Below are positions 28,085 through 56,635 of a stretch of 64,000 bases of DNA, in pieces. The notes under the pieces are model-generated. The model was not told the DNA's origin and ran no database searches. It saw only the letters and a list, made by a program, of their open reading frames with translations. The position numbers were made by a program, and so were the translations under genes. The stretch lies in assembly GCA_021414115.1 (NCBI GenBank), contig JAIOPD010000004.1, forward strand, positions 4,982 to 68,981. Reading direction: 5' to 3'. This DNA is from Planctomycetia bacterium. Lineage in GTDB: Bacteria; Planctomycetota; Planctomycetia; Pirellulales; UBA1268. Within the stretch, counting starts at the first letter, position 1, and every line of letters starts with the position of its first letter.

Positions 28085-28193
28085 GGGAAGCCCGGAGCGC
28101 GAGCGACGGGAAAGCGGGTGGCTCTCCGTGAGGGTTCCGCCGAGCGGGACGAGGCGGAGGGCGTATTCCCCGCGCTGGCGCTTGGGGCTTCCC
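28085..28193. repeat. REP-like doublet B1>-57 bp-<B2
   Basis: GGGAAGCCCGGAGCGCGAGCGACGGG at 28085-28110 and inverted B2 at 28168-28193, between convergent genes. Confidence 0.9.
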
Positions 28194-28280
28194 GAGACAG
28201 ACAGCATGCCAGCCGCTGGCAACGAGTGCGGTCTTGTTCTCTTCGCGAGTGCTTCAGCCAAAACGCTCCGTTGCCGCCCC

Positions 28281-29108
28281 TTATCCCCGGATCTTCTCGC
28301 CGAGAAACTCGAGCAGCGCCGCGTTGAAGACTTCGGGGGCCTCGAGCGGCGTCAGGTGACCGGCCCGAGGTACGATTAGGAGTCGCGCGTCGGGAATGAT
28401 CTCCTCCGCGGCCGCGAGGCACTCAGGCGGGGTGAGTAGGTCATCGGCTCCCACGACGAGGAGCGTGGGCATGCGAACATGCCGCATTGTGTCGGTCATG
28501 TCGGGACGATCGCCGAGCGCCGCGAGTGCCGCCTGGATGGTGCCCACCCGCTGCTCGACGATCATCCGCCGCAGCGCCGCCTCGTTGTCGCGGTGCCGCG
28601 CCACTGTCATCGTGTCGGCGTTGGCCGGCATCGGCGCGAGCAGCCGGGGGATCATCGCGTCGGCGAGGATCGACAGCCCCAAGCGGCCGACCTTCGCGGC
28701 CAGATCGACGCGGACTGCACGGGCCTCGGGTGTGTCGGCCTCGAGTCTGGTGTCGACGAGTACCAGCGACGCGACGCGGTCGGGATGGCGGGCCGCGACA
28801 TGCTGGGCGACATAGCCTCCCATCGACACGCCGCACACCACCGCCGGCCGGGTGACGTGCAGGCTGTCGAGGAGGGCGACCGCGTCATCCGCCATCTGGG
28901 CGATGCTCTCCGGTCCGGCTCCGTCGCTCGCCCCGAAGCCCCGGAGATCGGGAGCGATGATCCGCAGGTGATCGGCAAGCGGCGCCTGCAGGTCCCACAT
29001 GGAATGGTCGAGAGGAAAGGCGTGCAGCAGCAGGAGCGGGAGGCCGCTGCCGGCGGAATGCACCGCCAGCCGCGTGTCGCGGAGCGTGACGTGATGAATC
29101 GGCATCAT
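28281..29108 (-). CDS. Alpha/beta-fold hydrolase
   Basis: Motifs LLLHAFP, PDLRGFG, nucleophile GVSMGG, PTLLVVG.DD, AGHLTPLEAP. Confidence 0.9.
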   Translation of the reverse strand: MMPIHHVTLRDTRLAVHSAGSGLPLLLLHAFPLDHSMWDLQAPLADHLRIIAPDLRGFGASDGAGPESIAQMADDAVALLDSLHVTRPAVVCGVSMGGYVAQHVAARHPDRVASLVLVDTRLEADTPEARAVRVDLAAKVGRLGLSILADAMIPRLLAPMPANADTMTVARHRDNEAALRRMIVEQRVGTIQAALAALGDRPDMTDTMRHVRMPTLLVVGADDLLTPPECLAAAEEIIPDARLLIVPRAGHLTPLEAPEVFNAALLEFLGEKIRG

Positions 29109-30916
29109 GGATCGGTCATGGCCTTCTTGAACTGGTCGAGGTTACGGCGAATCGCGGGGTTGTGGGGTTCTTGCCGGACGGCGAGCAACTGCGTGCGGAT
29201 CGCTCCCCGCAGGTCGCCCGCGGCGGCACGGCAGTGCGACAGCGTATCGAGATAGCTCGCCGTGTCGAACGATTGCTCCAGCGACCGCTTCGAATAACGG
29301 GTGGCCTTGCGAACGTCGCCCTCCGTATTGGCGACGAGCCAGGCGTATTCGTTGTAGCCGTTGGCGTCGTCGGGCAGCGCCTGAATCTCCTCGTCGATCT
29401 GCTCGAGCGCACGGGCGACCCGCGCCTTGGCGTCGGCGCGTCTCTCCGCCGAGCCGGCCGAGAGACGGTAGCAGGCGATCAGCGAGTCGACGTCCTTGCC
29501 GTAGGCCCGCAACGATTCCTCGAGCATCCGGCGTTCCTCGACGGTGTCGCCGCTGACGGCCTGCGCGCGGGAACCGAAAAAGAGCATCCGCGACCGGACT
29601 GACCGCGGATCACGTTCGAGTCGCATCAGGATCTGGTCCATATCTTCCCCTTCGCGGCCGTCGAGCACGCGGCGGAGCATCGCGGCCGCCTCGGCATGGC
29701 GTTGCCGCTCGTGCAGAAACTCGGCGCAGAGGATGCCGGCGAGGGCGAACTCGCCCACCGAAGTCTCCGGCTGGTCGATGAGCGCCGCGTATTCCCGGAG
29801 CGACCAGTCGTCCGCCCCCCAGCGGGCCAGGAGCATCGCGGCCTGAAGCCGCCCGGTCGTGTCGGCCGCTTCGTCGCTGAACCGAGCATGGGCTCGGCCG
29901 GCGAGGGCCGCCGCCTTCGCCTCGTCGCCTCGGCGGCGCCAGGCCACGGCGGCGGCGTAGCCGACAAGCGGCTCGAAATCCGCGTCGTCCACAGCGAGTC
30001 GATCCGCCATCAGATCGACCGCCTCCGGGAGGTCGTGATCGGTAAGCCAGATGAGCTCGGCGGCAACGAGTTCCGGTTCGGAGGGTGATCCAGCACAGGC
30101 CGCGAACAGCCGGCCGGCCTCCGCTACGGCTTCGGTCCGTCTGCCCGCCGCGACGAGCATCTGCACCAGGCAGCGGCGAAAGATCCGCAGCGTCTTTGCC
30201 CGGCCGAGCGAGGCATCGGTCGGATCTTCCGCCGCGGGCATGTCGGCGGCGGCTTCGGACTCTGGCCGGTCGAGCGCCGCGACCGTGGCGACGGCCACAT
30301 CGATCGCCGGCACGGCCGCCGGGGGAGAGTTTGCGAGGGAGGCGTCGATGATGGCGCGGAGCAGCTGCGCGGGCGGCCGCCCGCTCGGGCCGAGACCGGC
30401 TGCGATCCGGTCGCGGAGGCCCGGCCAGGCAGAATCATCTGGCTGCCACTCCCGGGCCAGGAGTGCCGCGGCGATCCGCGAGCCCGTCTCGGTTCGCTCC
30501 AGCCGCACGATCCGGGCGAGCGGCTCGATGCCCGTGTCGTCGTCGAGCCGCAGCAGCCGGTGCATGATCTGCACGCGGTCGTCGAAGTCGCTGCGGGTGA
30601 AGCGGTCGAGGAGAGCGGCAACCTCGGGCGGATCGTCGGCCAACGTGAGAGGCAGCGACTCGACGAGCCAGCGCGCCCGCAGCGCCACCTCCAGGTCGGC
30701 GTTTGACTCGGCGGCCGCGAGGAGCGCGTCGGAGGCCTCGGCCCCGAGCGCCGCGAGCCTCGTGGAGGCCGTTTCACGGACGGCGAAGTCGGCGTCGCCG
30801 AGTTGCGTGATCAGTGCGGCAATCTCCGCATCGACGGGGACGGCGGCATTGGCGGTGAGGACCGTGGCGACCCCGGCCACCATCATCCAGAGCATTACCT
30901 TCGGAGTCGGCCGCAT
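29105..30916 (-). CDS. Secreted helical-repeat (HEAT/TPR-like) protein
   Basis: Signal peptide, LITQLG..DFAVRE.A..L HEAT-like start, and C-terminal YNEYAWL..YLDTL TPR-like repeats. Start estimated. Confidence 0.7.
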   Translation of the reverse strand: MRPTPKVMLWMMVAGVATVLTANAAVPVDAEIAALITQLGDADFAVRETASTRLAALGAEASDALLAAAESNADLEVALRARWLVESLPLTLADDPPEVAALLDRFTRSDFDDRVQIMHRLLRLDDDTGIEPLARIVRLERTETGSRIAAALLAREWQPDDSAWPGLRDRIAAGLGPSGRPPAQLLRAIIDASLANSPPAAVPAIDVAVATVAALDRPESEAAADMPAAEDPTDASLGRAKTLRIFRRCLVQMLVAAGRRTEAVAEAGRLFAACAGSPSEPELVAAELIWLTDHDLPEAVDLMADRLAVDDADFEPLVGYAAAVAWRRRGDEAKAAALAGRAHARFSDEAADTTGRLQAAMLLARWGADDWSLREYAALIDQPETSVGEFALAGILCAEFLHERQRHAEAAAMLRRVLDGREGEDMDQILMRLERDPRSVRSRMLFFGSRAQAVSGDTVEERRMLEESLRAYGKDVDSLIACYRLSAGSAERRADAKARVARALEQIDEEIQALPDDANGYNEYAWLVANTEGDVRKATRYSKRSLEQSFDTASYLDTLSHCRAAAGDLRGAIRTQLLAVRQEPHNPAIRRNLDQFKKAMTDP

Positions 30917-31006
30917 GCGGCAGCAATCCTTGGAATCGTCGGTCGGCACGGCCTTCGCCACGGCAAGCAAGCCTAAGCCCGCATCGAGGGCGGGGGCAAG
31001 CAATCG

Positions 31007-31585
31007 TCAGGTGGCGTCGGGTTCGATGCCGAGATCGCGGATCGTGACGAGCGACTCGAGCGGAATGCCGCGGGCGGCCAACGCCTCGTGGGCCCCGGCC
31101 AGCCGGTCGATGACGGCCACCAGTCGCTCCACGACGAGCCCAAACTCCTCGGCCCGATCGATGGCCAGAAGCGACGAACCGCCGGTCGTGACCACGTCTT
31201 CCACGATCACCACCCGCTGCCCGGGCTCGACGGGGCCCTCGATGTATTTCTGGAGGCCGTGTCCCTTGGCTTCCTTGCGGACCATGAACCCCTTGAGCGG
31301 CACCCCCTCGACGCCCGCCATGGTGACGACGGCCCCGGTGACGGGATCGGCACCGATCGACATGCCGCCGACGGCGTGGGGTAGCGGACCGAACGACCGG
31401 AGCCGTTCGAGAATCGCCCGCCCCACGAGCATGGCGCCCTGCGAATCGAGGACGACCTGTTTGGCGTCCAGATAGAAGCTCGCATCGCGGCCCGAGGCGA
31501 GCCGGAAGGTGCCCCGCTTCAAGGCTCGTGTGCCGACGAGATCGACGAGTTGCCGTGTGACCGGCGTGCTGGGAGTGGTGCTCAT
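31007..31585 (-). CDS. pyrE: Orotate phosphoribosyltransferase
   Basis: Motifs FRLASGR..FYLD, VRKEAKGHG and the PRPP-binding VIVEDVVTTGGS. Confidence 0.95.
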   Translation of the reverse strand: MSTTPSTPVTRQLVDLVGTRALKRGTFRLASGRDASFYLDAKQVVLDSQGAMLVGRAILERLRSFGPLPHAVGGMSIGADPVTGAVVTMAGVEGVPLKGFMVRKEAKGHGLQKYIEGPVEPGQRVVIVEDVVTTGGSSLLAIDRAEEFGLVVERLVAVIDRLAGAHEALAARGIPLESLVTIRDLGIEPDAT

Positions 31586-31676
31586 GGCGGGCAGTATAAG
31601 GCGGAGCGACCGTTTTTTTGACTCCTGCGGCAGGCGACTTAGAATTTGGCGTTCGTGTGCAAGCCGGAGTGAACTC

Positions 31677-33794
31677 ATGCGGCTCGGTTCCGCCTTCTGC
31701 CGGCTCTCGAGCCTCGTCGCCGCGTGGGCCGTCGTTCTGGCCGTGCCGCCGGCTGTCGCCGCTCCGACGGTCGTGATCCCCGTCCGCCTGCCGATCACCG
31801 GCACCCGCGACACGCAGGTTGAGGCCGCCGTCGTGCGTCACCTCGCGCGACTCCGCGGGGCAGCGGAGGAGCGAGGCACGCTGGTGCTGCAATTCGACGC
31901 GACCGACGGCGAGGTGGCCGGTGGGAGTGATTTCGGGCGGTCGCTCGAGCTGGCGCGGTTTCTCACCGACCCCCGGCTCGCCGGCGTGAAGACGGTGGCC
32001 TGGCTGCCCCACGGGGCCACCGGCCACGCCGTGCTCGTGGCGCTGGCCTGTGACGAGATCGCGATGCCCCCGGACGCGGTGCTCGGTCCGGCCAACGTGG
32101 CCGAGCCGGTGGTGGACAACGCCATGCGGGCGGCCTACGCGGAGGTGGCGTCGCGGCGGCGGACCGTGCCTCCGGCGGTGGCGCTGGCGCTTGTCGATCC
32201 AGCGGCTCGCGTGGCCCGCGTCTCGACCGACGACGGCGAGCAGTTCGTCGAGGAGCGGGATCTTGCCGATCTCCGAAAGAAAGTGGCGGTGCTCGCGGTG
32301 GAGGAGCTGCGGCCGGTTCCTGTTTCGTTCGACGGCCGACGCGGCCGCGAGTTTGGATTCGTGCGGCTCCTCGCCCGCACGCCGGCGGAACTCGCCCGTG
32401 GGCTCGGGGTGCCCGAGCAGGCCGTGGCCGCCGATCCGTCGCTCACCGGTGGCTGGAAGCCGGCGCGGGTGGCTCTCACCGGAGCGGTCACGCCCGAGGC
32501 GGTGGCACGGCTCCGGAGTCGGATCGAACGGGCGATCGCCGACGGAGCCAACTTCATCTGGTTGCGGATCGACAGCGCCGGCGGCTCACCCGAGCAGAGC
32601 CTCGTGCTCGCCAACTGGCTGGCAGGCCTCGACCCGGGTGGCGTGCGGACCGTGGCCTACGTGCCGCGGGAGGCGCGGGGCGACGCGGCCCTCGTTGCGG
32701 CGGCCTGTGATGAACTTGTGATGCACCCCGGTGGCGTGATCGGCGGTGAGGGGGCGGCCACGATCGGCGGCCGCAAGGCGGAGTCGGTGGTGGCGGCCTG
32801 GCGCGGCGGGGTCGCAAAGCTTCGCGACCGCGGCTGGTCGCTTCCCGCGGCGCTCGTGGCCCCCGGACTGGTGGTACGCCGCGCCGTCGAGCAGGGCACG
32901 GGCCGGGTCGAGTATTTCACCGAGGATGAACTCGCGTCGCGGGACGACCGCGAGAGCTGGGAGCTCGGCCCGCAGATCGGCACCGGGCCTTTGCAACTCG
33001 ACGGACGCCGCGCCGAGGAACTCGGGCTCGTGGCCCATGTCGTGGACGATGCCGAGGGCGTGCGCAAGGCCTACGGGCTCGACGGCGAGATTGCCGTGGC
33101 CGAGCCGGGCTGGTCCGACAAACTGCTCGAGGCGCTCGCGAGCCCGAGCCTCGCCTGGCTGCTGCTCCTGATCGGCGGTGCCGGGCTGTACATCGAACTC
33201 AAGACCCCGGGCGTCGGCTTCGGCGGGTTCGTGTCGATGGTGGCGTTCATCATTTACTTCTGGAGCCAGTATCTCAACGGCACGTCGGGCTGGCTCGAGG
33301 TGATGCTGTTCATCGCGGGCGTCGTGTGCGTGGCCGCCGAGATCTTCGTGCTGCCCGGCTTCGGCGTGCTCGGCCTTGGCGGCGGCCTGCTGGTGATCGC
33401 GTCGATCGTGCTCGCCAGCCAGTCGTTCGTGCTGCCGGCCAACGACTATCAGATCCGCCAGATGCAGTGGTCGCTCCTGGGCATCCTCGGTGCGGCTGGG
33501 GGAGTGACGCTGCTGGGTGTCTTCGTGGGCCGCTGGCTGCCGGCGACACCGTTTTTGAAAAACGTGCTGCTCGAACCGCCAGCCGAGGAAGTCGCCGGCG
33601 ACGATCCCTGCGGAGACCTGGTCGGCGCGGCGGGTACGACGACGACCCGGCTCGCCCCGGCCGGCAAGGCGCGGATTGGGAACGCCATTCGTGACGTCGT
33701 CAGCGACGGAATCTTGATCGAGCCCGGGATGGCCGTCGAGGTCGTCGAAGTCCGCAATGGGCGTGTCTGGGTGAGGCCGGTGGCATCCGCATGA
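31677..33794 (+). CDS. Long NfeD-family membrane protein (ClpP-like domains + TM region + C-terminal OB fold)
   Basis: RIDSAGG, ALVAAACDELVM, YIELKTPGVGFGG, AAEIFVLPGFGVLGLGG, and C-terminal G.TTTRLAPAGKARIG. Confidence 0.85.
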   Translation: MRLGSAFCRLSSLVAAWAVVLAVPPAVAAPTVVIPVRLPITGTRDTQVEAAVVRHLARLRGAAEERGTLVLQFDATDGEVAGGSDFGRSLELARFLTDPRLAGVKTVAWLPHGATGHAVLVALACDEIAMPPDAVLGPANVAEPVVDNAMRAAYAEVASRRRTVPPAVALALVDPAARVARVSTDDGEQFVEERDLADLRKKVAVLAVEELRPVPVSFDGRRGREFGFVRLLARTPAELARGLGVPEQAVAADPSLTGGWKPARVALTGAVTPEAVARLRSRIERAIADGANFIWLRIDSAGGSPEQSLVLANWLAGLDPGGVRTVAYVPREARGDAALVAAACDELVMHPGGVIGGEGAATIGGRKAESVVAAWRGGVAKLRDRGWSLPAALVAPGLVVRRAVEQGTGRVEYFTEDELASRDDRESWELGPQIGTGPLQLDGRRAEELGLVAHVVDDAEGVRKAYGLDGEIAVAEPGWSDKLLEALASPSLAWLLLLIGGAGLYIELKTPGVGFGGFVSMVAFIIYFWSQYLNGTSGWLEVMLFIAGVVCVAAEIFVLPGFGVLGLGGGLLVIASIVLASQSFVLPANDYQIRQMQWSLLGILGAAGGVTLLGVFVGRWLPATPFLKNVLLEPPAEEVAGDDPCGDLVGAAGTTTTRLAPAGKARIGNAIRDVVSDGILIEPGMAVEVVEVRNGRVWVRPVASA

Positions 33795-34471
33795 CCGCCG
33801 TCGTCTGGATCATCGCGCTTTTGGCCGTCGGCCTGGGCATGCTGGTGCTCGAGGTGTTCGTGCCCTCGGGAGGCGTGCTCGGGTTTCTGAGCGTCGTGGC
33901 GCTCGGTGCCGGCGTCGCGACAGCCTTCGTGGAGCAGGGGCCGTGGATCGGCACCCTCACGCTCGCGGCGACGTGTGTGGCGGCGCCGCTGGCGTTGGCA
34001 CTGGCGTTTCGGTTGTTTCCCCAGACGCCGCTTGGCCGCCGGGTGTTGCCGCCTCCGCCGCGGCCGGACGAGGTGGTGCCCGATGCCGATCGGCGGGCGC
34101 TCCTCCGCGACCTCGTGGGCCGGTCCGGCCGGGCCACGAGCGATCTGCTGCCGTGGGGCAGCATCGAGATCGACGGCATCGAGCACACCGCCTTCAGCGA
34201 GAGCGGGCCGATCACGCGGGGCGAGTCGATCGAGGCCGTGGGCGTGCAGGCGACGGCACTCGTTGTCCGTGCCCGGGTCGCGCCGCCCCCCATCGCTCCG
34301 CGGTCGGACGGCCCCCCGGCCGAGCCGACTCCCGGGCCGCAGGCGGTGCCGCGGCACCTGGAGGAGGCGCTCGAGGCCTTCGACTTCGACGCGCTTGGGC
34401 GGGTGACCGCGGCTGGAAACTCGACTCCGGCTGTAAAACTTGACTCGGCCGCCCCGCTGAAACAGTCTTAA
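33791..34471 (+). CDS. Short NfeD-family protein
   Basis: LVLEVFVPSGGVLG TM region and LVGRSGRATSDLLPWGSIEIDG OB-fold. Translationally coupled to the previous gene. Confidence 0.8.
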   Translation: MTAVVWIIALLAVGLGMLVLEVFVPSGGVLGFLSVVALGAGVATAFVEQGPWIGTLTLAATCVAAPLALALAFRLFPQTPLGRRVLPPPPRPDEVVPDADRRALLRDLVGRSGRATSDLLPWGSIEIDGIEHTAFSESGPITRGESIEAVGVQATALVVRARVAPPPIAPRSDGPPAEPTPGPQAVPRHLEEALEAFDFDALGRVTAAGNSTPAVKLDSAAPLKQS

Positions 34472-34516
34472 GCGATGCGGCGTCGCGCCGCGTTCCCCAC
34501 GTTTCGGAGCCGACCG

Positions 34517-35542
34517 ATGCCTCTCGTGACCCTGATCGTCCTCGGGGCGGGCGTGTTCGCCCTGCTCGTCATGTTCGCCGTTCTGGCCCGGTATCTCCGG
34601 CTCTGGGTGCAGTCGGTCGCATCGGGGGCTGGGATCGGCCTCTTCGACCTGGTGGCGATGAGCTTCAAGAAGGTGAATCCGGCCGTCATTGTGCGGAGCA
34701 AGATCATGGCCGTGCAGGCGGGGCTCGGCGATTCCACCGGCCTGACGTCGCAGGCCCTCGAGTCGCACTATCTCGCCGGCGGTCGCGTGCCCCTGGTGGT
34801 GCAGGCGCTGATCGCGGCCAACAAGGCGAAGATCACCGAACTCGACTTCAAGCGGGCCGCCGCCATCGATCTCGCCGGGCGGAACGTCCGCGAAGCCGTG
34901 CAGACGAGCGTCTATCCCAAGGTGATCGACTGCCCCGGCAAGAACAGCGGCCGCGAGTCGCTCGACGCCGTGGCCAAGAACGGGATCCAACTCAAGGTCA
35001 AGGCCCGGGTCACCGTGCGGACCAACCTCTACCAACTCATCGGCGGCGCCACCGAAGAGACGATCATCGCCCGCGTCGGCGAGGGCATCGTCTCGGCGAT
35101 CGGCTCTGCCGAGCGTCACAGCGACGTGCTCGAAAACCCCGACGTGATCTCGAAGACGGTGCTCGCCCGCCGGCTCGACGCCAACACGGCGTTCGAGATC
35201 GTGTCGATCGACATCGCCGACATCGACGTGGGGGCCAACATCGGCGCCCGCCTGCAGGCCGATCAGGCCGAGGCCGACACCCGCGTGGCCCGCGCGAATG
35301 CCGAGGGCCGCCGGGCGATGGCCGTGGCGAAAGAGCAGGAGATGATCGCGAGCATCGAGGAGAGCCGGGCCGGGCTCGTACAGGCCGAGGCGGAGGTGCC
35401 CAAGGCCGTCGCCGAATCGCTCAGCTCGGGCCAGCTCGGCATTTTTGACTACTACAAGCTGCGGAATCTGCAGGCCGACACCGACATGCGGCGGACGATC
35501 GCCGGCGGCACGGCGACGCCGTCGATCGCCACGGCGCAGTAG
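34517..35542 (+). CDS. floA: Flotillin-like protein FloA (YqfA/UPF0365)
   Basis: Motifs [71 protein letters not shown]. Follows nfeD genes. Confidence 0.92.
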
Positions 35543-35560
35543 AACGGAATCGAGGGAGCG

Positions 35561-36199
35561 ATGTTGGACGCCGTCGCCATGCCGCTGTTTGCCGCCGGGA
35601 TCGACTGGCTCGAGGGGCTTCTGCCCCTGTTGTTCGTCGTGTTCTGGATCGTCTCGCAGATCGTCGGCGTGATCCGCAGAGTGGCCGGAGCGGGAAGGCC
35701 GAAGCAGCCGGAGCCGCTGCGGCCGGTCCCAAGACCGCTCGCCGACGGCGGGCCTGCCGCGGCTGGTGGCCCGAGATCCGAACTGGAGCGGCAGGTCGAG
35801 GAGTTTCTCAAGCGCTCCGGGGGCGGTCCGCCTCCGCGGCCGCGGCAGACCAAGCCCACGCCGCCCCGGCCCGTCGAGCGGCCTCGTCAGCGCGAGGTGA
35901 TGGTGCGCCGCGACACTGCGCCGGTGCCGGCCGCCCGCGAGAAGCCGGTGGCTGAGCGGCATCTCCGCAGCATCGCCGCCGACGGCGATGTCGCCAAACA
36001 CGTGCACGATGCGTTCGACCAGAAGATGGCACACCTTGAATCGCCTCTCGCCGCAGGCGAACTCGACGCCGACGGCAGGCCGGTGCTGCAATCCCCCGCA
36101 TCACCGGTCGAACTGACGAAGCTGCTGCGAAACCCGCTGGCCCTCCGCCAGTTGATCCTGCTCCGCGAAGTGCTTGACCGTCCTGTCGAGCGCTGGTGA
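35561..36199 (+). CDS. Hypothetical single-TM protein in the floA operon (YqfB-like position)
   Basis: GAGGGAG RBS, N-terminal hydrophobic helix, Pro/Arg-rich linker and C-terminal LRQLILLREVLDRP motif. Confidence 0.7.
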   Translation: MLDAVAMPLFAAGIDWLEGLLPLLFVVFWIVSQIVGVIRRVAGAGRPKQPEPLRPVPRPLADGGPAAAGGPRSELERQVEEFLKRSGGGPPPRPRQTKPTPPRPVERPRQREVMVRRDTAPVPAAREKPVAERHLRSIAADGDVAKHVHDAFDQKMAHLESPLAAGELDADGRPVLQSPASPVELTKLLRNPLALRQLILLREVLDRPVERW

Positions 36200-36372
36200 C
36201 CGCCGCCGATCGGGTGCTGGCATCCGGATGCTGGCGCCGTTCGGGGCGGCCCGCAGAGCCGACGCAGATTTCCCGGGCCGCTGCGCCGGCCGCGAAATCC
36301 CCAGCGGGAGGGGTATTTGCGGGGCCTGGGAGCGGCTCTTTGCGAGCGGAAACGCGGGGTCGAATTCAAGGC

Positions 36373-36401
36373 TTGAGCGTCCGCCCCGGCTGGTCTACAA
36401 G
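36373..36401 (+). promoter_or_regulatory. Candidate sigma70 promoter
   Basis: TTGAGC-N17-TACAAG, about 100 bp upstream of the SH3-domain gene. Confidence 0.4.
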
Positions 36402-36435
36402 GGGGTCGGCAGGGCGGCTTCGGCGGCCCGAACGC

Positions 36436-36480
36436 AGCGCGTAGACGAGGACGCCCAAGCCTCGTCTACGCGCTTTTTTT
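36436..36480 (+). terminator. Rho-independent terminator
   Basis: 15-bp perfect stem AGCGCGTAGACGAGG/CCTCGTCTACGCGCT, 9-nt loop, followed by a run of T. Confidence 0.85.
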
Positions 36481-36512
36481 GGTGGAGCCGATGTCCACGG
36501 ATGGATGCGGCG

Positions 36513-38012: not shown

Positions 38013-38174
38013 GGGAAGCCCCAAGCGCGACCGCGGGGTATTCGACCTCCACCCCAACCCGCTCCGCGTGAGTGCTTCGGGCGGCCACCCGTCTACCCGT
38101 CGCTCGCGCTCCGGGCTTCCCAAGCACCGGATGCCGCGGCTCTTCGCCGGGAAGCCCCAAGCGCAAGCGCGGGG
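38013..38174. repeat. REP-like triplet B2>-57 bp-<B1 .. B2>
   Basis: Units at 38013-38038, 38096-38121 (inverted) and 38149-38174, between convergent genes. Confidence 0.9.
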
Positions 38175-42884: not shown

Positions 42885-43242
42885 CGCCTGACGGGGGCCC
42901 GAGTGGTGGGTCGGGGCTGCCCGTGCCCCGCGAGCCGGACGTTCTCTGCGCCCATCCGGCTGTCGCGCCGTCCGCCGCCGTCGGCTCGGGGCTGCCCGTG
43001 CCCCGAGAGCCGGACGTTCGCTGCGCCCATCCTGGGCTTCGCTCACTCGATGCTGCCTGCGCTGGCCAGCAACGCCGGCTCTCGGGGCACGGGCAGCCCC
43101 TCGCGGGTTCTCGATTGTGTTCGTTGCTGGGGAAGCCCGGAGCGCGAGCGACGGGTATACGGGTGGCGACCGTGTTGATGATGGGGAGCCGTCCGACGTG
43201 GATGACGTATTCCACGCGCTGGCGCTTGGGGCTTCCTGAAGG
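42885..43242. mobile_element. Composite non-autonomous repeat element (A>A>..<A + B1>..<B2), copy 1
   Basis: A units at 42912-42938, 42987-43013 and inverted 43075-43100; B1 at 43130-43155; inverted B2 at 43212-43236. Colinear with 56335-56635. Mobility is inferred. Confidence 0.7.
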
Positions 43243-46551: not shown

Positions 46552-46731
46552 CCCCGCGCTCGCGCTTGGTGCTTCCCGACGACGAGGCATGGCGATCCGT
46601 GAGGCATTGCCTCGGGTGCCCGGAAAGCCCGGAGCGCAAGCGACGGGTAGACGGGTGGTGACCCGTGGCGGCGGTGTGGAGCGAGTCCGGGTGGAGGGCG
46701 TAGCCCCCGCGCACGCGTTTGGGGCTTTCCC
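46552..46731. repeat. REP-like triplet <B2 .. B1>-57 bp-<B2 (more degenerate)
   Basis: Units at 46552-46577 (inverted), 46622-46647 and 46705-46731 (inverted). Reverse-complement arrangement of 38013-38174. Confidence 0.85.
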
Positions 46732-47488: not shown

Positions 47489-47514
47489 CGCTCCCTCCTC
47501 CGACCGGGATCCCG

Positions 47515-47868
47515 CTACTCGGTGATCGGCTCCTTGATCAACTGCACGAAGTGATGCACTCGCGACGACGCGATCAACTCGGCCACCTTCTTGTCGGCGG
47601 CCTTCTTGTCGGCGTATTCGAAAAGTGCGAGCCGCTTCATGCCCTGATTGAACACGCCCCAGAAGGCCTTCATCCGCGCCTCCTTGGCGACCTTTTTCTT
47701 TCGTACGGCCTTCTTTTCGCCGACCTTCTTGGGCGCCTTGGCCTTCTTTTCCTTGGGGACCTTTTCCTTCGTGGCCTTCTCCTTGGCACCCGCCTTGGTC
47801 TTGCCACGGGCCTCCGCCGCATCCGCCTGGGCCCGCAGTTCCTTGCGATTTACGATTTTCCGCGCCAT
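47515..47868 (-). CDS. Small lysine-rich basic protein
   Basis: 117 aa, about 27 Lys by my count, with a KEK/KKA low-complexity core and a compact C-terminal domain (KAFWGVFN..FEY..HFVQLIKE). Confidence 0.85.
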   Translation of the reverse strand: MARKIVNRKELRAQADAAEARGKTKAGAKEKATKEKVPKEKKAKAPKKVGEKKAVRKKKVAKEARMKAFWGVFNQGMKRLALFEYADKKAADKKVAELIASSRVHHFVQLIKEPITE

Positions 47869-47971
47869 GTCGCAGTCGCCGTCCTTCCGTCAGAGGTTGA
47901 ATCTGGAATGAGTGGCCCGAAGTATAGCGTGTCGGCAACTCGCCGCACCGCCGGTTTATACTGACCGCATC

Positions 47972-49114: not shown

Positions 49115-49199
49115 TACGGCTCCCACTGAAGCCTCGCGCGTCAAGGCTCGACGTCCTACCGATTGTGGTTTCTCGTGGGGAACGCCAGCTGGCGAGGGT

Positions 49200-49430
49200 C
49201 GGGGCTGCCCGTGCCCCGACAGCCGGACGTTCGCGTCGGGCATCCTGCCCGCCGCTCACTGCATGTCCGCTGCGCTTCGGCATCCTGCCTTCGCTTGCTC
49301 CCATAGCCCGGCTCTCGGGGTACGGGCAGCCCCTCACACGAACAAAAGGCCTACGGGTCGCCTTTCGAGAGCGCTGCAGTGACTGGCACGCGCCGCCGCC
49401 GATCGGGAAGCCCCAAGCGCGAGCGCGGGG
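49200..49430. repeat. Repeat cluster A>..<A plus a single B2
   Basis: A at 49200-49226, inverted A at 49308-49333, B2 at 49405-49430. Internal GGCATCCTGCC twice. Between convergent nadA and the aminotransferase. Confidence 0.85.
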
Positions 49431-49554
49431 TATACGGGTCGCTTTGAGGGAGCGCTGGATTGGTAACACGCAGGGTTCAACGCTGCGCAGTTAAGGCACG
49501 AACTCAGCTCCTCGCCGCGCACGAGTGCAGCCCGCGGCGATCTTCACGGGGGCG

Positions 49555-50793
49555 TCAGCCGGCTTGGGCGTATTCGTCGAGGAGCGACTCGATGCGGGCG
49601 AAGACGTCGGCCATCTGGTCGGCGTCGGGCAGGAGGGTGACCCGGAAGTGGTCGCGGTAGGGAACGTTGAAGCTCGACCCCGGCGCGACGAGGACATGCT
49701 TCCGCTCGAGGAGGTCGAGGGCGAACTGCTGGTCGTCGAAGCCCGCGAGGCCGCCGGGCAGCCGCTCCGCGTGCACGCGGATGAACGCGTACATGGCCCC
49801 CTGCGGAGCCACGGCCGAGAGCCAGCGGCTGCCGGCCACAGCGCCGAGCATGGCGGCACGGGTGGCGTGGAGCCGGCCGCCGGGACGCGTCAGATCGAAG
49901 ATCGACTGGTGGCCGCCAAGCGCCGTCTGCACGGCGAACTGGCCCGGCACATTCGAGCACAGCCGCAGCGATGCGAGCAGTTCGACCGCCTGGATGTAGT
50001 CGCGGGCATGCTCCCGTTCACCGGAGAAGATCAGCCAGCCGACCCGGAGGCCGCAGGCCCGGTAGACCTTGCTGAGGCCGGCGAAGGTGAGGCACAGCGC
50101 CCGCTTGGCGAGCGTGGCGGTGGGCACGAACTCGGCGCCGTCGTAGAGCATCTCGTCGTAGATCTCGTCGGCGCAGAGCACGAGATGGTGCCGCTCCGCG
50201 ATCCCGGCGAGGGCCTCGAGCACCTCGCGTGGATAGACGGCACCCGTGGGATTGTTGGGATTGATGATGACGAGGGCCCGAGTGCGGTCGGTGACGAGCG
50301 CCTCGATCTCGGCGGGGTCGGGCACGAAGCCGCGTTCGGGGCGGCAGGGATAATGCACCGCCTTCGCGCCGTGGATCACGACCGAGGCCGTCCAGAGCGG
50401 GTAATCGGGGCTCGGTACGAGCACCTCGTCCCCCGGGTTCAAGAGTGCCCGCATCGCGAGCATGATGAGCTCCGACACGCCGTTGCCGATGAAGACGTCG
50501 TCGGCCGTGATGTCCATCACGCCGCGGTTCTGCTGCTGCATCACCACGGCCTCGCGGGCCGGGAAGATGCCCTTCTGGTGCGAATAAGGATCGGCCTGGT
50601 GGAGGTTTTCCACGACGGCCACCCGCATCGACCCGGGCATCCGAAACCCGAAGGCCCCCGGATTGCCGATGTTGAGCTTCACGATCTCGTGCCCCTCGCG
50701 CTCCAGTTGCTCGGCGCGGCGGGCAAGAGCGCCACGAATCTCGTAGCGGACCTCGTGGAGGTGTTCGGAGGCACGAAGCGGTTTCAGGCTCAT
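49555..50793 (-). CDS. alaA: PLP-dependent class I aminotransferase, AlaA/YfbQ type
   Basis: Motifs VRYEIRG, KLNIGNP, GNGVSELI, PDYPLWTA, INPNNPTGAVY, DEIYD, GLSKVYR. Confidence 0.88.
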   Translation of the reverse strand: MSLKPLRASEHLHEVRYEIRGALARRAEQLEREGHEIVKLNIGNPGAFGFRMPGSMRVAVVENLHQADPYSHQKGIFPAREAVVMQQQNRGVMDITADDVFIGNGVSELIMLAMRALLNPGDEVLVPSPDYPLWTASVVIHGAKAVHYPCRPERGFVPDPAEIEALVTDRTRALVIINPNNPTGAVYPREVLEALAGIAERHHLVLCADEIYDEMLYDGAEFVPTATLAKRALCLTFAGLSKVYRACGLRVGWLIFSGEREHARDYIQAVELLASLRLCSNVPGQFAVQTALGGHQSIFDLTRPGGRLHATRAAMLGAVAGSRWLSAVAPQGAMYAFIRVHAERLPGGLAGFDDQQFALDLLERKHVLVAPGSSFNVPYRDHFRVTLLPDADQMADVFARIESLLDEYAQAG

Positions 50794-50840
50794 GGGGTCG
50801 GGTTCCGGAGGAAGCATTGATCCTACCTCGGCCGCGGCCG

Positions 50841-53800
50841 TCAGTCGGCGAGCGCGGCGGCGAGCGATTCCCAGGGCATGGGCACCCAGGCCACGCACTC
50901 GGGCAGAGCCGTCGGCACGCGGGCCGCGCCGGCGGTTCGAGCCGGCGAGGCGTTGGCCCGGTCGATCGCGCGGTCCACGGCCGTGCCCAGTCGCTCGAGC
51001 CACTCGGGCACCTCGACGCCCGACCCGCTGGCCAGGCCGATGAACGACGTCGCCTTCGCCTCGAGCGCCGCCCCCGCCGCGGTCGATTGACCGGCGATGA
51101 GTTCGGCCACGGCGGGCTCGACCAATGCCTCGAGCTCGTCCTGCTCGAGCATCGCCGTGAACGGCCGCCGGACCCGGTCGCCGATACTGGCCAGCCGCAC
51201 GCTCCAGTGACCCTCGAGCTGGTCGAGCCTCCGCACGAGCCCCGCCGCGGTGTCACGGGTCTCGTCGCGGAGCCGTTCCCGCCAGGACTCCGCGGCCGCG
51301 GCCACGCCGCGGCCCGCGAGCACCCGATGGGCCATGTTGACCGGCCGCAGTGTCCAGGAGATGCGGTCGTGTTCGGCCTTCACCCGCAGGTAGTCGAGCA
51401 GGATGTAGAGGCATTCGCCCCGGTCGGACTGCGTGGTGGTCGAGTTCCAGTCACGATACTCGGCGTGATTCTCCGCGATGCTTTCCAGCACCAGCCGCAG
51501 GCGGGCCGCTGCCTGCTTCATCGGCAGCGCTCCCGAGGCGAGGTCCTCGATGAGCCGGGCGGGATGGCGACTGGCCGGTACGTCGGGCTCCCCGGCCTCC
51601 GCGGCCCGATCGAGCAGGTGTTCGAGCCAGTTCCGCACGCCGCCGCGCAGGATGCCGCGAAGCGAGGACGGCGCCAGGAGGTGCTGCGTGAACAGCCCCG
51701 AGCCATACCGCTCGACGAACTCGCGGGTGACGGCGAAGGCCTTGTCATCGCGGACGCGTTCGAGAACCGAGAGCCGCAGCTGTCGGGCATGCGTCATCCA
51801 GGTCTCGAGCAGTTTGGGGACGAGCAGCGACAGGCCGTCGAGGATTCGCGCCGTCTGCGTGGCGGCGTCAGCGTCGCCGTCGCGACTGCTCTCCACGATC
51901 CGTTCGACGAGCGCGGTCGTGCCCGCCTCGAAGACGCGGTCGAACTCGCTGACGCTCGCCCCGCCTGGAGGCCGGGTGCTCTCGAGCGCCTTGGCCAGTT
52001 GCACGACCATGATCGCCTGTCGGACGAGGCCCAGGCGGGGCAGGGACGCCGCCATCCGCTCGAGCAGCCGTTCGCGAGTCCGCGCCCGGACGATGCGGTC
52101 GGGGCGGCCGCCGCGGGACAAGGGGACGTAGAGCACGGGCTTGCCGACGAGACGTTCGCAGACGGCCTGGCTGCGATCAGCGGCCTCGATCGCATCACCA
52201 CGGATGAGCGCCGCGATCAGCCCGCCGACGGAGGCCTGCGAGGCCGGGCCGCTTGCCGACGGAGCGAGCCGCAGCCGGGCCGACAGCATCCAGAGCGTTT
52301 CGCCCGCCTGCACGGCGGCTTCGATCAGCCGTTCTGCCGCCGCGTCGCGCTGCCAGCGGAGCCGGTCAAACTCGGTCGGCGACATGCCGGGGGGCGGCTC
52401 CTGGTCGCGGGCGGCGACGAGCGTGGCCGCGCGGATCATCGTCCGCCGCAGCCGCCGCAGCGTGTGCCGCCAGCCGATGACGGAATCGAGTTCCTCGCGG
52501 GCCGGCTCCGCCCCGTCTGCTGCGTCAATGGCGCACCAGGCCGTAACCGCCTCACGAAACAGGCGAAAGACTCCTCTGAGGAACTCAGCGGCATCTTCCA
52601 CGGCCGCCAGGCTGCCGACCGACACCCCGCCGCCGTCGAGGTCGATCATGCCACCGTCCACGCCGTCGTCCGCGGAGTCGCGCCAGACCATCGACTCGTA
52701 GGCGGCGGCGACCCGCTCCTCGGCATCGGGCTGGTCCTCGTCGTCAGCCTCGCGCCGGCTCGGATCGTCTCCCGGCTCGCGGCCCACGGCCGCCGCCTCG
52801 ACGATATCGACGACGTCTCCGGTGTTGGCCTCGACGAGCTCGAGAAAGCGGCGCACCCGCGAACGTCCCTGAGGTGAACGGTCGAGGCACGCCTGGGCGA
52901 TCCACCGGCTCGCGGCCGCGAGCCAGACCGGGCCGCTCCGCTCGACGGCAGGGCCTTCGAGCAGCGACGCCCAGTGCACGAGCAGCCCCGCCGCGCCGTC
53001 GAGGTCGCCTTCGTCGAGCAGGGCGTCGGCCGCCTGTGCGTGGGTTTTGGGCGAGGAGAAGCCGGCCACTTCATGCCGCCAGAATCCTGACGGCGGCGGC
53101 TCCGACGCATGTTCGCGCCGGCGGGAGAGCGACTCGATCACCTCGCGGGCCGAGTCGAGGCACTCGCGACCCGAAAGATGCGGCACGCCCGAGACGGTGG
53201 TCGTGGCATAGCGGTCCCACCAGGTCGCGAGCTTGTCGATCGATGCCGCGGCGCGGGCGGCGGCGGGACTTGCCGTCGGAATACTGGCGTGCCGCCAGGC
53301 TGCGGCGTAGCCGTCGAGGATCGAGCCGGTGGCCATCACGAGGTCGTCTACCCGTGGATCGGGCAGGCTCTCACCCCCCGGCTCGTGCAGCGGGAACTGA
53401 CCGGAGAGGCCGAGAATATTCCAGGGATCGACCGCGGCGCCGCAGCCGACGGCGCGGAACAGCAGGTCGGTCGCGATATCGAGCTGATCGAGCGCCGCGG
53501 CGGCGTCGGCTCCACGCCACAGCTCCTGCTGCGCCGCCACGACATGGCTCGTGATCCGCGCGAACATCCGTGCGGAAGCGGCCGGCACGGCGGTCGCGAG
53601 CCGCTCGGCGACCTCCGCGCGGCCAAGCCGGGCGAGCACGACCGCGAGGGCCACGTTCTCGACCTGCCGGCCGCGACGGCCCGCAAGCATCGCGTTGATG
53701 TGCCGTCGCACGCCCCCGAACGGCTGCCGCACCCGATGGGCCTCCTCCTCGAGACGTTGGCGGTGGGCGGCCGGAAGGGTCGTCAGCAGCCGCCGGTAGA

Positions 53801-54818
53801 ATTCGTCGCGATAGGAGGCGATCCGCGGGAGGAGTTCGGCGAGTGGGAGCCCTGCCTGGATCGCGCCGGGGCCGTGGCCCGAGAGGCCGCTGGCCATCAG
53901 CATCACGCCGGCCAGCACCGCGGACGATTCCCAGCGGAGTTCGGCGGCGGTCGCCGCGGTCCGGTCTGGAATCTGCGCCGCGTCGGGCCATGACAGGATT
54001 CCGTCGAGCGTCGCCTGCTGGACGACCATTCGCCGATACAAGCCGCGTTCGTCGATCCGCGACGGATCCCAAAGACCGAAGAGATAGTTGGGCCTACTCG
54101 ACGCGGGGTGCAGGAAGTCGAAGGCCCGCGGATCGATCGCGAGCTCCTCCAACGCGTCGAGGTCGAAGTCGGCCTGACGGAGGAGCTCGACGGGCACTTC
54201 GCCCAGGATGCCGATCGCCCCGTTCACGAGCTGGCGATACCTGCCGTGCGCCGCTCCCGCGCCGGCGACGTAGAGGGGGATCGGCCGCACTCGCTCGTGC
54301 GGATAGGGTTCCGAGAGGCGGCCGTTCTCGAGCACGGCGAGCGGACGCCAGCCGACGTAATCGTCGAGACGGTCGATCGCCCGTGCCACGACGGCGTCAC
54401 GGTCGTCCTCGGGACCTCCCTCGGCGAGCAGCCCGCGCATCGCGGCCATGATGAAGAACGGCCGCTCGAGCGCCCCCGGCGGCTGGTGCTCGAGGAGATC
54501 TGCGTGGTATCGCCGATAGGCGGGCAGCAGCCCGTCGAACACGCCGTCGATCGCCCACCGCGCCTGGACGGCGTCGCGGAAAGCCGGTTCCGTAGCCTCG
54601 AGGCCCTGCAGTCTGGCCCGCAGCGCGGTCGCGACCTCGGTCGCGGTGTCGGCTCCTTCGGCGACCGAGCCGTCGGGGGAGGCTGGCTCGATCCCCGCGT
54701 AGAGGTCGTTGATGCCGCGCCACGCCGCCGCATCGAAGGCGCCCGACGAGAAGTTGAGATACCCGAGCACGATCGCCGCGGCATCCCTGGAACCCGGCGT
54801 CTTCACGGCATGCAGCAT
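50841..54818 (-). CDS. Large hypothetical protein (1325 aa), no recognised domain
   Basis: Long ORF filling the gap, with non-random motifs (LGYLNFSSG, DPRAFDFLHP..RPNYLFGLWDP, VDPWNILG, EYRDWNSTTTQSDRGE). Confidence 0.85.
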   Translation of the reverse strand: MLHAVKTPGSRDAAAIVLGYLNFSSGAFDAAAWRGINDLYAGIEPASPDGSVAEGADTATEVATALRARLQGLEATEPAFRDAVQARWAIDGVFDGLLPAYRRYHADLLEHQPPGALERPFFIMAAMRGLLAEGGPEDDRDAVVARAIDRLDDYVGWRPLAVLENGRLSEPYPHERVRPIPLYVAGAGAAHGRYRQLVNGAIGILGEVPVELLRQADFDLDALEELAIDPRAFDFLHPASSRPNYLFGLWDPSRIDERGLYRRMVVQQATLDGILSWPDAAQIPDRTAATAAELRWESSAVLAGVMLMASGLSGHGPGAIQAGLPLAELLPRIASYRDEFYRRLLTTLPAAHRQRLEEEAHRVRQPFGGVRRHINAMLAGRRGRQVENVALAVVLARLGRAEVAERLATAVPAASARMFARITSHVVAAQQELWRGADAAAALDQLDIATDLLFRAVGCGAAVDPWNILGLSGQFPLHEPGGESLPDPRVDDLVMATGSILDGYAAAWRHASIPTASPAAARAAASIDKLATWWDRYATTTVSGVPHLSGRECLDSAREVIESLSRRREHASEPPPSGFWRHEVAGFSSPKTHAQAADALLDEGDLDGAAGLLVHWASLLEGPAVERSGPVWLAAASRWIAQACLDRSPQGRSRVRRFLELVEANTGDVVDIVEAAAVGREPGDDPSRREADDEDQPDAEERVAAAYESMVWRDSADDGVDGGMIDLDGGGVSVGSLAAVEDAAEFLRGVFRLFREAVTAWCAIDAADGAEPAREELDSVIGWRHTLRRLRRTMIRAATLVAARDQEPPPGMSPTEFDRLRWQRDAAAERLIEAAVQAGETLWMLSARLRLAPSASGPASQASVGGLIAALIRGDAIEAADRSQAVCERLVGKPVLYVPLSRGGRPDRIVRARTRERLLERMAASLPRLGLVRQAIMVVQLAKALESTRPPGGASVSEFDRVFEAGTTALVERIVESSRDGDADAATQTARILDGLSLLVPKLLETWMTHARQLRLSVLERVRDDKAFAVTREFVERYGSGLFTQHLLAPSSLRGILRGGVRNWLEHLLDRAAEAGEPDVPASRHPARLIEDLASGALPMKQAAARLRLVLESIAENHAEYRDWNSTTTQSDRGECLYILLDYLRVKAEHDRISWTLRPVNMAHRVLAGRGVAAAAESWRERLRDETRDTAAGLVRRLDQLEGHWSVRLASIGDRVRRPFTAMLEQDELEALVEPAVAELIAGQSTAAGAALEAKATSFIGLASGSGVEVPEWLERLGTAVDRAIDRANASPARTAGAARVPTALPECVAWVPMPWESLAAALAD

Positions 54819-54966
54819 CGAAGGAGGGTTCGCGGGAGGGAGAGCGCAGCGGAAAAATCAGGACAACCGATGAAATCCTATCATTTTTGCCCCCTCGCGA
54901 GCACGAACTATCCTTGGCCTGACGTCGGGCCATGGGCCTGCGCGAACCGTCAGGATATCGGCTCTC

Positions 54967-56313
54967 ATGCATCGCATCATTTCTCCACTCGCCGGGTCCG
55001 TGCTGCTTTCGACGGTCGTGTGGATCGCCGGCGGGCTTTCGGCCATGGCGCAGTCGCTCCTCTGCGGTACGGCCGGCGATGAGCTCGTCGCGGCCCGGGC
55101 GGGCCTGACCCGCGAGTGGGTCGTGCAGATTCCGTTCGACTCGGCCGGCTGGCGGCTCGAGCACGTGTCGATCGGCGACGATCTCGTCGTCGCCTGTTCC
55201 GGCGACGGTGGCGTGCACGCCGTCCAGGCGTCGCCTGCGCGAACCGGCTCGCCCCGCGCGGGAAGCGTGCTCTGGTCGCAACGCGTGGGCACGCCCGGCG
55301 GACCGGTGGCGGCTGCGGGCATTGGCCCCAAGGTTGTGACGGTGGCGCGGGATCTCGATCTCTATGCCTTCGACAGTGCCGATGGCAGTCGCATGTGGCA
55401 CCGCTCCTTCGGCCGTCCGCCGTCCGCATCTGCCGTCTCGTCGGACGAATGGGTGTATGCTCCGTTGACGGCCAACGGTGTGATGCGACTGCCCGTGAAT
55501 CCCACCGCGCAGCCTCGGCTGCAGGACACCGCGAAGAAAGACGCCGCGGCTTCCCAGGATCGACCCGCCAAGCAGCCCAGCGAGAAGGTCGCCGGGACGT
55601 CCACCGATCCTCTGCTGCCGATCTCACTCGATGCGGGCGGCCGCGTGGAGTCAGGGCCGATTGCCTACAAGGATGGCGTGGTGTGGTGCACCGAGAGCGG
55701 GCTGCTCGTCGGCATCGTCCCATTCAGCCTCGGATGGAAACGGCTCGAGTTTGATCTCCGCTCGGGGCTGACCGGCCCGCCGGCGATTCGCGACGCTGCG
55801 CTCTTCGTGGCCACCGAGGAGGGCGACCTCGCCCGCATCGACGACACGGGCCAGGAAGACGCGCCTGATTTCGCCGCCGTGTGGCACGTCGTGCTCGTCG
55901 CTCGTCCGCAGGGCAGCCCGCTCGTCTCCGGCCAGACCGTCGTCGTCTCGCTGGGTGACGCGGGCATTCACGCCTTTTCGGCCACCACCGGCGACGAACT
56001 CTGGAGGAGTTGTGTGGTGGGGCGGCTCGTGGCCACGACGGGCAATCGCGTGTGGTGCGTCGACGAGGTTGGCCGGCTGGCGAGCCTCGACCTGGCCACC
56101 GGCATGCCGAGCGAATGGATGTGCCTCGGCAGCTTCACGCTGCCGCTCACCAACACCGTCACGGAGCGGCTGGTGCTTGCCTCGCCCGACGGCCTCATCG
56201 TCTCGCTCGCGCCGCGGCGCACGACGTCGAAGCTGCCGCCTCCGCCACCCAAGGACGAGAAGCAGCCGCCGGCCGCCGCTGAGCCCGTCGCCGAGGAGCG
56301 GACGGAGACCTAG
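54967..56313 (+). CDS. Secreted PQQ-like beta-propeller protein (BamB-like)
   Basis: Signal peptide and repeated YAFD...G...W / HAFS..TG..LW / LDL.TG blades. Confidence 0.75.
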   Translation: MHRIISPLAGSVLLSTVVWIAGGLSAMAQSLLCGTAGDELVAARAGLTREWVVQIPFDSAGWRLEHVSIGDDLVVACSGDGGVHAVQASPARTGSPRAGSVLWSQRVGTPGGPVAAAGIGPKVVTVARDLDLYAFDSADGSRMWHRSFGRPPSASAVSSDEWVYAPLTANGVMRLPVNPTAQPRLQDTAKKDAAASQDRPAKQPSEKVAGTSTDPLLPISLDAGGRVESGPIAYKDGVVWCTESGLLVGIVPFSLGWKRLEFDLRSGLTGPPAIRDAALFVATEEGDLARIDDTGQEDAPDFAAVWHVVLVARPQGSPLVSGQTVVVSLGDAGIHAFSATTGDELWRSCVVGRLVATTGNRVWCVDEVGRLASLDLATGMPSEWMCLGSFTLPLTNTVTERLVLASPDGLIVSLAPRRTTSKLPPPPPKDEKQPPAAAEPVAEERTET

Positions 56314-56334
56314 ACCGCTTGCGACTTGGTGTCT

Positions 56335-56635
56335 CGCCTGACGGGGCCTGAGTGGTGGGTCGGGGCTGCCCGTGCCCCGCGAGCCGGACGTTCGCTGCGC
56401 CCATCCTGGGCTGCGCTCACTCGATGCTGCCTGCGCTTCGGCATCCTGCCTGCGCTGGCCAGCAACGCCGGCTCTCGGGGCACGGGCAGCCCCTCGCGGG
56501 TACTCGATGGTGCCGGTTGCTGGGGAAGCCCGGAGCGCGAGCGACGGGAAGACGCGTGGCGACCGTGTTGATGGCGGGGAGCCGTCCGACGTGGTGGACG
56601 TTTTCCCCGCGCTGGCGCTTGGGGCTTCCTGAAGG
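56335..56635. mobile_element. Composite non-autonomous repeat element (A>..<A + B1>..<B2), copy 2
   Basis: A at 56361-56387, inverted A at 56468-56493, B1 at 56523-56548, inverted B2 at 56605-56629. Colinear with 42885-43242 including linkers. Confidence 0.7.

Follow-up and report, generated by a model that had tools for sequence, protein, structure and literature searches.

A two-subtype family of REP-like hairpins in a Pirellulales planctomycete and its probable link to a divergent class 3 HuH-Y1 gene

A stretch of 64,000 nucleotides from a Pirellulales planctomycete (the window; G000:C135:4982-68981) carries a repeated unit of 26 bp in two subtypes, B1 and B2, which raises the question of what kind of element these units form and which nuclease belongs to them. 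An earlier note, made from the window alone, had read them as a system resembling repetitive extragenic palindromic (REP) sequences and the bacterial interspersed mosaic elements (BIMEs) of E. coli, with the nuclease encoded elsewhere. We found support for this reading in the pairing and spacing of the units, in a Y1-type gene that is flanked by them, and in the co-occurrence of gene and repeats across the genus. B1 and B2 are probably two subtypes of a REP-like hairpin in BIME-type arrangement, cognate to a single-copy, divergent gene of class 3 HuH-Y1 (TnpA-Y1, RAYT-like). The assembly containing the window (G000; the other genomes of the genus are numbered likewise) has 4,346,575 bases in 144 contigs, with 67% G+C and 95% completeness.

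Pattern searches for B1 and B2 detected 15 units in the window, five B1 and ten B2 (Table 1), with an expectation of 0 from 100 dinucleotide-preserving shuffles. The units and coordinates reported earlier were thus all recovered, and so were the five spacers of 57, 57, 56, 57 and 56 nt. Each of the five B1 units lies tail to tail opposite an inverted B2.

The whole genome was searched with up to four mismatches per unit, and neighbouring units were counted as pairs up to 300 bp apart. In total 711 units were found in 4.35 Mb, 340 of them B1 and 371 B2. Tail-to-tail pairs (n=227) were B1/B2 in 224 cases, B1/B1 in three and B2/B2 in none, with an expected heterotypic share of 0.50 (binomial p 6e-63). 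The spacers of the 224 B1/B2 doublets showed a sharp peak at 56-57 nt, with 83 doublets at 56 nt, 113 at 57 nt, 16 at 66 nt and 12 at other lengths. Both the heterotypic preference and the distance peak that the earlier note had proposed to look for are therefore present genome-wide. By arithmetic from the spacers, the unit centres of a doublet lie about 83 or 92 bp apart, roughly 8 or 9 helical turns. Head-to-head pairs were also mostly heterotypic (77/83), their linkers being spread over 3-149 nt with loose clusters at 26-29 and 42-47 nt. All units together are grouped into 389 loci, among them 153 single units (76 B1, 77 B2), 146 plain doublets and alternating arrays of up to six units. The statement that every B1 faces a B2 is accordingly correct for the window, but genome-wide it does not extend to the single units and arrays. 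It was also observed that 43 of the 389 loci touch a contig end and that many public homologues of the nuclease described below sit on contigs of about 1 kb. This indicates that the repeats break short-read assemblies, and the unit counts are consequently lower bounds.

The commonest arrangement is a B1/B2 doublet of 108-109 bp in alternating inverted orientation. Each unit has a 5'-(TC)RGGAAG foot followed by two stems, the first of 4 bp and the second of 2-4 bp, with a 2x2 internal loop or bulge between them, and a GNNA loop. B1 and B2 are identical at 21 of 26 positions and differ at five. Conservation extends slightly past the 26-mers, TC preceding B2 and GC(T/C)C preceding B1, and the complementary strand at the outer edge of B2 reads CTTCC[C/T]GA, with G in 86% and A in 81% of the copies at +1 and +2. 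Mean pairwise identity was 92-96% in the arms, 60-68% in the interiors and 29-31% in the DNA 21-60 nt outside, from which it follows that the spacers are homologous, though freer than the arms. The spacer sequences had been described as different; they are indeed not identical, but they are not unrelated either. The spacer class was associated with the outermost base of B2 (p 6.5e-7), which fits a doublet inherited as a unit. The earlier proposal that the doublet is the replicating unit gains from this association and from the homology of the interiors, but units also occur singly, in alternating arrays and joined to a second repeat family as a composite.

As single-stranded DNA, the doublet folds as a long imperfect hairpin made from its two arms (z -3.5 to -4.7 in five of six folds, -1.8 in one), with no consistent pairing or fold in the interior of 56-57 nt. 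The hairpins of single units are weak, at -5.1 and -4.8 kcal/mol, and no better than those of shuffled sequences. Changes within copies fall on the loop base. Orientation relative to local GC skew is unbiased (38/38/36/34). The imperfect hairpin first proposed for each unit is thus poorly reflected in the folding energy of single units, but a small hairpin of this kind recurs with different sequences in other genomes, as set out below.

Next we searched for the nuclease. In the 95% complete G000 assembly, the Pfam model Y1_Tnp found nothing at E 0.001 or better. Matches were present in 17 of 36 sampled genomes of the genus, the strong ones being classical RAYT-like genes. These genes were rejected as the source, as G003, G029, G019, G001, G012, G005 and G002 have them and yet contain 0 B units; eleven classical RAYT-like open reading frames (ORFs) gave no tblastn match in G000 better than E 0.038. 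Listing the genes that lie between two unit clusters yielded 86 intervals, too many for singling out a nuclease. The gene was reached through a weak Y1_Tnp match (20.8 bits) in G006, a genome with 203 B units, where the matching ORF corresponds to G000:C100:666-1229 with 50.5% identity over 188 residues (E 2e-50). The profile search suggested earlier therefore failed when applied directly to G000, but the gene found by this detour is flanked by B units.

The gene, G000:C100:717-1240, is a single-copy gene of 174 codons outside the window, with a TTGACA-N16-TACACT promoter-like site ahead of it. On its left it is flanked by B2'-29-B1-57-B2' and on its right by B2'-29-B1-57-B2'-29-B1-57-B2', an array with a period of 138 bp, so that eight units in total surround it. 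A Y1-type gene bracketed by B1/B2 arrays is in agreement with the earlier expectation of a nuclease encoded elsewhere in the genome. No adjacent tnpB-like ORF was seen on inspection, the only method applied, of the 3-kb locus.

The protein has 561 relatives at E 0.001 or better, and the JGI label 'REP element-mobilizing transposase RayT' is attached to 40 of the 120 homologues listed. The source names of two homologues agree with a Pirellulales planctomycete. In 35 aligned homologues, H95, V96, H97, W142, Y163 and Q168 are invariant, as is an N-terminal block LTWT..G.WL.GD.RGW at residues 18-34. The G000 protein has the motifs QHVH, WWA (WWT in most homologues) and YVRECQ (Y....Q). Its AlphaFold model (pLDDT 83, pTM 0.76) was compared with solved structures by Foldseek, and the best matches were the IS200, ISDra2 and IS608 transposases together with the REP-associated tyrosine transposase 4er8 (E 3e-4 to 3e-3). 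Ranks 1-28 were all IS200, IS608, ISDra2 or RAYT chains, and no unrelated fold appeared before rank 31; with this predicted model as query, the TM scores were 0.43-0.51 by query length and 0.47-0.66 by target length. A search of solved structures by sequence gave one marginal match, 2ec2 (E 0.18). The predicted structure of the product thus matches the IS200/IS608/RAYT fold.

The distribution of gene and repeats was compared in 68 genomes of the genus. The B pattern was detected in 23 of them, nine of which have at least 15 copies: G000 (654), G022 (448), G085 (291), G006 (203), G065 (161), G028 (67), G004 (30), G024 (22) and G034 (15). Of the 68 genomes, 28 have a homologue of the nuclease, and the nine with 15 or more units are all among them; the 40 genomes without one contain at most eight units each. 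Hairpin units flank the nuclease gene in all 12 loci inspected. Six of these loci have B1/B2 or close variants (G000, G085, G022, G028, G006, G065) and six have other unit types (G025, G088, G064, G068, G021, G033), with two subtypes in five of the latter and one seen in the short G068 locus. Two such variants have been amplified within the genomes that carry them (205 in G025, 45 and 84 in G088, 30 and 83 in G033), and G000 lacks them. One hairpin design recurs in 10 genomes with different stem sequences. In the common form of the variants, [G/C/A]AAG is followed by a stem of 3-4 bp, then by one or two unpaired bases, a further stem of 2-5 bp and a GNNA loop. This recurrence with different stems is the strongest evidence that what is recognised is the small hairpin, and not the duplex between the arms alone.

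The nuclease gene occupies the same locus in G000, G085 and G022. In these three genomes the gene upstream of it was read by eye, with no family search, as what we presume to be folD-like. The nuclease is 67-72% identical across the three species and the neighbouring products are 91-94% identical.

The closest described system is class 3 of the HuH-Y1 proteins as defined by Quentin et al. 2018 (BMC Genomics 19:475, PMC6006769), which according to that survey have the motifs NHVH, W[TA] and YV[VI]xEQ, a length of about 178 aa and an extended N-terminal profile. They occur mainly in Planctomycetes and Acidobacteria, and their genes, of single or low copy number, have several 'atypical' hairpins beside them, which occur in high copy as well. 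The gene found here shares with them the xHVH, W[TA] and Y....Q motifs, a conserved extended N-terminus and a similar length (174 aa), as well as its single copy, its flanking high-copy hairpins and its planctomycete host. Its YVRECQ differs from the class 3 Y-motif at the third and fifth residues. The strict two-subtype pairing and the fixed spacers do not appear to be described for class 3 in the text of PMC6006769.

In E. coli, as described in PMC3333891, BIMEs combine a y REP with a z1 or z2 REP in inverted orientation, with discrete linkers, as single pairs or tandem arrays; 84 of 584 REPs are single. In that system the REP with its GTAG foot is bound by TnpA-REP, and cleavage takes place both at the inverted partner and within the linker (Ton-Hoang et al. 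2012, PMC3333891). Heterotypic inverted pairs, discrete linkers and tandem arrays are common to these BIMEs and the family studied here, as are a smaller share of single units and the location of a single-copy Y1 gene within an array (REPtron). The family also shares with E. coli REPs a non-complementary position beside the 5' tetranucleotide in the hairpin, judging from the same paper and structure 4er8. However, the foot is GAAG here and GTAG there, the linker is longer here (56, 57 or 66 nt), and the enzyme, a member of another Y1 class, stays below the thresholds of the RAYT models. Membership in the class 2 RAYTs is similarly contradicted by the tetranucleotide 5' of the hairpin, which is GT[AG]G in that class and GAAG here, and by scores below the curated RAYT and Y1_Tnp models. 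What is shared with RAYT/TnpA-REP is the single-copy gene bracketed by its own REPs, at one locus in three species. With the REPINs and their RAYTs, as presented by Bertels and Rainey 2011 (PMC3116915), the family shares an inverted doublet as the inherited unit, hundreds of copies per genome and a single-copy, vertically inherited Y1 gene. The arms of a REPIN are two copies of one REP and form one hairpin, whereas here two fixed subtypes enclose an interior without consistent pairing. The predicted fold, the small imperfect hairpins and the lack of a target duplication are shared with the IS200/IS605 elements (IS608, ISDra2), but the nuclease gene here is single-copy and not itself repeated, and the repeats vastly outnumber it.

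A mechanism can be modelled on TnpA-REP and IS608 TnpA. The enzyme would bind the GAAG-footed hairpin on single-stranded DNA and would use Y163 to cleave the inverted partner at its complementary CTTC foot or close to it; H95 and H97 are predicted to hold the metal. Rejoining of the strands could then excise, insert or duplicate doublets without target duplication. By this analogy, binding by the nuclease, the cleavage sites and mobilisation of the units are putative properties of the system.

As far as PMC6006769 and PMC3333891 describe them, a class 3 HuH-Y1 gene with high-copy hairpins and BIME-type heterotypic pairing are both known, and this kind of system is thus already in print; the case here is a well-documented further example. 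In the literature searched, class 3 was treated only in PMC6006769, and the 15-mer cores of the units were not found printed. PMC3733652 mentions Planctomycetes only for GTAG and CGTC repeats, never for GAAG. Class 3 systems rest on the one survey paper, without biochemistry. The quantified case consists of one gene, about 700 units, a strict two-subtype rule, three spacer classes and a joint change of gene and hairpins in sister species, and therefore offers a good set of substrates for testing how class 3 proteins recognise and cut DNA. It also bears on the question whether class 3 acts as a transposase or as a domesticated RAYT. The gene escapes standard searches with Y1_Tnp, and REP families of Planctomycetes regarded as 'orphan' may therefore not be so.

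Several observations weigh against a REP-like family cognate to this gene. The nuclease protein scores below threshold with both Pfam Y1_Tnp (14.1 bits, cut-off 23) and NCBIfam REP_Tyr_transpos (18.1 bits, cut-off 80). The foot given for class 3 in PMC6006769 is CnGA, but the 5' foot is (TC)RGGAAG here and CAAG or AAAG in relatives; C[C/T]GA was found only on the complementary strand, 3' of the hairpin. In a further 19 genomes the homologue is accompanied by fewer than 15 units of the B pattern; four of these genomes were checked for cognate variants, which three of them contained. The exception, G010 (51% complete), has the homologue and neither of the two variant units tested. In G022, with its 448 units, the nuclease match consists of two overlapping pieces that are read in different frames (G022:C188:2748-3255), which may be a frameshift or an assembly error. 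Only one identical pair was found among 210 doublets, with a median nearest-neighbour identity of 0.91, and the B1/B2 family is not visibly active at present. The gap in identity between arms and interiors is unexplained by simple copy-and-decay and points to constraint in place. Finally, the gene context is based on rough gene calls from G+C at third codon positions (GC3), covering 82% of the genome.

The identity gap is also an argument for a partly overlapping explanation, namely that the units are host-serving elements, such as phased binding sites, mRNA 3'-end stabilisers or terminator-like structures, kept by selection, with the nuclease only as their historical source. The interiors have diverged to 60-68% identity and still measure 56, 57 or 66 nt in 212 of 224 doublets, and the centres of the paired units are spaced by about 8 or 9 turns. 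The loci are moreover enriched past gene ends, since convergent genes enclose 124 of the 295 intergenic B loci (42%) but only 539 of 2973 intergenic regions overall (18%). Divergent genes enclose 25 of the B loci; outside the 295, 51 loci overlap a called ORF and 43 are those at contig ends. E. coli BIMEs, in the account of PMC3333891, bind IHF, Pol I and gyrase. However, the hairpins are not followed by a T-run, and the doublets occur in both orientations relative to the upstream gene without bias (29 against 20). Units also lie inside coding sequence, occupancy varies among sister species, and whole unit types are swapped between species. Taken together, we regard a mainly host-serving role as doubtful. 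A related proposal holds that the arms are maintained in place and are not mere decaying copies, either by re-templating through the nuclease (concerted evolution of REP ends) or by host selection on hairpins phased at about 8 or 9 turns. It draws on the contrast between arms and interiors, the locked lengths of 56, 57 and 66 nt and at least one orthologous site, the linker of the UvrA ORF described below, where species carry variant units of their own, and we consider it unlikely.

The doublet could also be a miniature inverted-repeat transposable element (MITE), that is, a deletion derivative of a DDE-type insertion sequence with imperfect terminal inverted repeats of 26-28 bp, as its size of about 110 bp, its inverted ends with 21 of 26 identical positions and its high copy number would allow. 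Flanking direct repeats were, however, no commoner than in shuffled pairings (k 2-8, 7 offsets), single units and alternating arrays are common, and the only bracketed gene found is of Y1 type, although no search of the genome with DDE transposase models was made; a MITE origin seems highly improbable to us. We give equally little credence to structured non-coding RNA genes or cis-regulatory RNA. The long-hairpin fold (z about -4) and the position in transcribed 3' regions would suit an RNA, but an Rfam search of the window found only a tRNA and no family that matches the units at the gathering score. The orientation relative to genes is mixed, there are 389 loci with some inside coding sequence, and the changes within copies fall on the loop base. 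A REP-like family with a cognate class 3 nuclease remains our preferred interpretation.

Table 1. Positions of B1/B2 units and of family-2 repeats in the window.
Feature	Position	Strand	Composition and context
Two B2 units, 60-nt tandem	21752..21837	-	21752-21777 (-) and 21812-21837 (-); inside double-UvrA ORF
Heterodoublet	28085..28193	+	B1 28085-28110 (+), 57-nt interior, inverted B2 28168-28193 (-)
Alternating triplet	38013..38174	.	B2 38013-38038 (+), 57 nt, B1 38096-38121 (-), 27 nt, B2 38149-38174 (+)
Family-2 partial copy	42908-42960		Window
Family-2 repeat (context)	42975..43115	+	About 140 nt, joined to the 43130 doublet
Heterodoublet	43130..43237	+	B1 43130-43155 (+), 56-nt interior, B2 43212-43237 (-); family-2 repeat directly 5'
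Alternating triplet	46552..46730	.	B2 46552-46577 (-), 44 nt, B1 46622-46647 (+), 57 nt, B2 46705-46730 (-)
Family-2 repeat (context)	49190..49340	+	Upstream of the single B2 at 49405
Single B2 unit	49405..49430	+	64 nt downstream of a family-2 repeat
Family-2 repeat (context)	56357..56508	+	Joined to the 56523 doublet
Heterodoublet	56523..56630	+	B1 56523-56548 (+), 56-nt interior, B2 56605-56630 (-); directly 3' of a family-2 repeat

Further observations concern the individual loci of the window (Table 1). The doublet at 28085 is flanked by apparently convergent ORFs, with a hydrolase gene (28281-29108, minus strand) adjoining it, and its single-stranded fold has -38.7 kcal/mol (z -3.96). 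Convergent genes on both sides are likewise found at the 56523 doublet (fold z -4.01), and the fold of the 43130 doublet has a z of -4.71. The arrangement of the triplet at 38013 was found 30 times in the genome, and the triplet at 46552 holds the most diverged copies of the window.

Comparison of orthologous sites, which the earlier note had suggested, showed that occupancy differs between species at three intergenic sites. At the 43130 site, where G000 has the doublet, G022 has a single unit and G085, G065, G006 and G028 have no unit. At 46552-46730 there are three units in G000 and two in G085; G065 has a pair in the opposite order, and G028 and G006 have no unit there. The single unit at 49405 in G000 corresponds to a B2-/B1+ pair in G085 and G022 and to no unit in G065. 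The junctions were not alignable base by base, the intergenic DNA of G000, G022 and G085 being too diverged and repeat-rich.

The B2 tandem at 21752 is translated in frame (…EEAPSASAGNTR… twice) within an ORF of 2052 aa with two UvrA-like halves (19904-26062, minus strand). It was observed that this in-frame pair occupies a variable linker of the ORF and that the flanking protein sequence is conserved. In the orthologous linker, G022 has two units and G085 has one; G065 has one of its own variant type, and in G006 no unit is recognisable.

Additionally, a second repeat family (family 2) was observed next to B units. Its members measure about 140 nt and have a GGGGCACGGGCAGCCCC core enclosed by inverted arms, and 130 loci of at least 100 nt were counted in G000; the family is present in all five relatives searched. 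A B unit lies within 100 bp of 76 of the 130 loci, with a control mean of 4. The coupled unit is always 3' of the family-2 repeat with its GGAAG foot nearest, in 48 cases B1 and in nine B2, and no other arrangement was seen. Measured from repeat to unit, offsets of 24 nt (41 cases) and 15 nt (12 cases) are the commonest. At three family-2 arms the same tail is present but no unit follows, and these are possible empty sites. One possibility, which we also consider unlikely, is that the nuclease inserts units at a fixed offset of 24 or 15 nt from the 3' arm of family 2, which would be site-specific targeting of one repeat family by another.

A third unit type of low copy number was observed at 18 places in G000, for example at C16:200(-) and C78:95901(+). 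Its design is that of the other units, and it consists of xAAG, CCGACCGGCC, a GNNA loop and GGCCGCGG. Several of its copies adjoin 3' arms of family 2, and the type resembles the units that flank the nuclease gene of G068.

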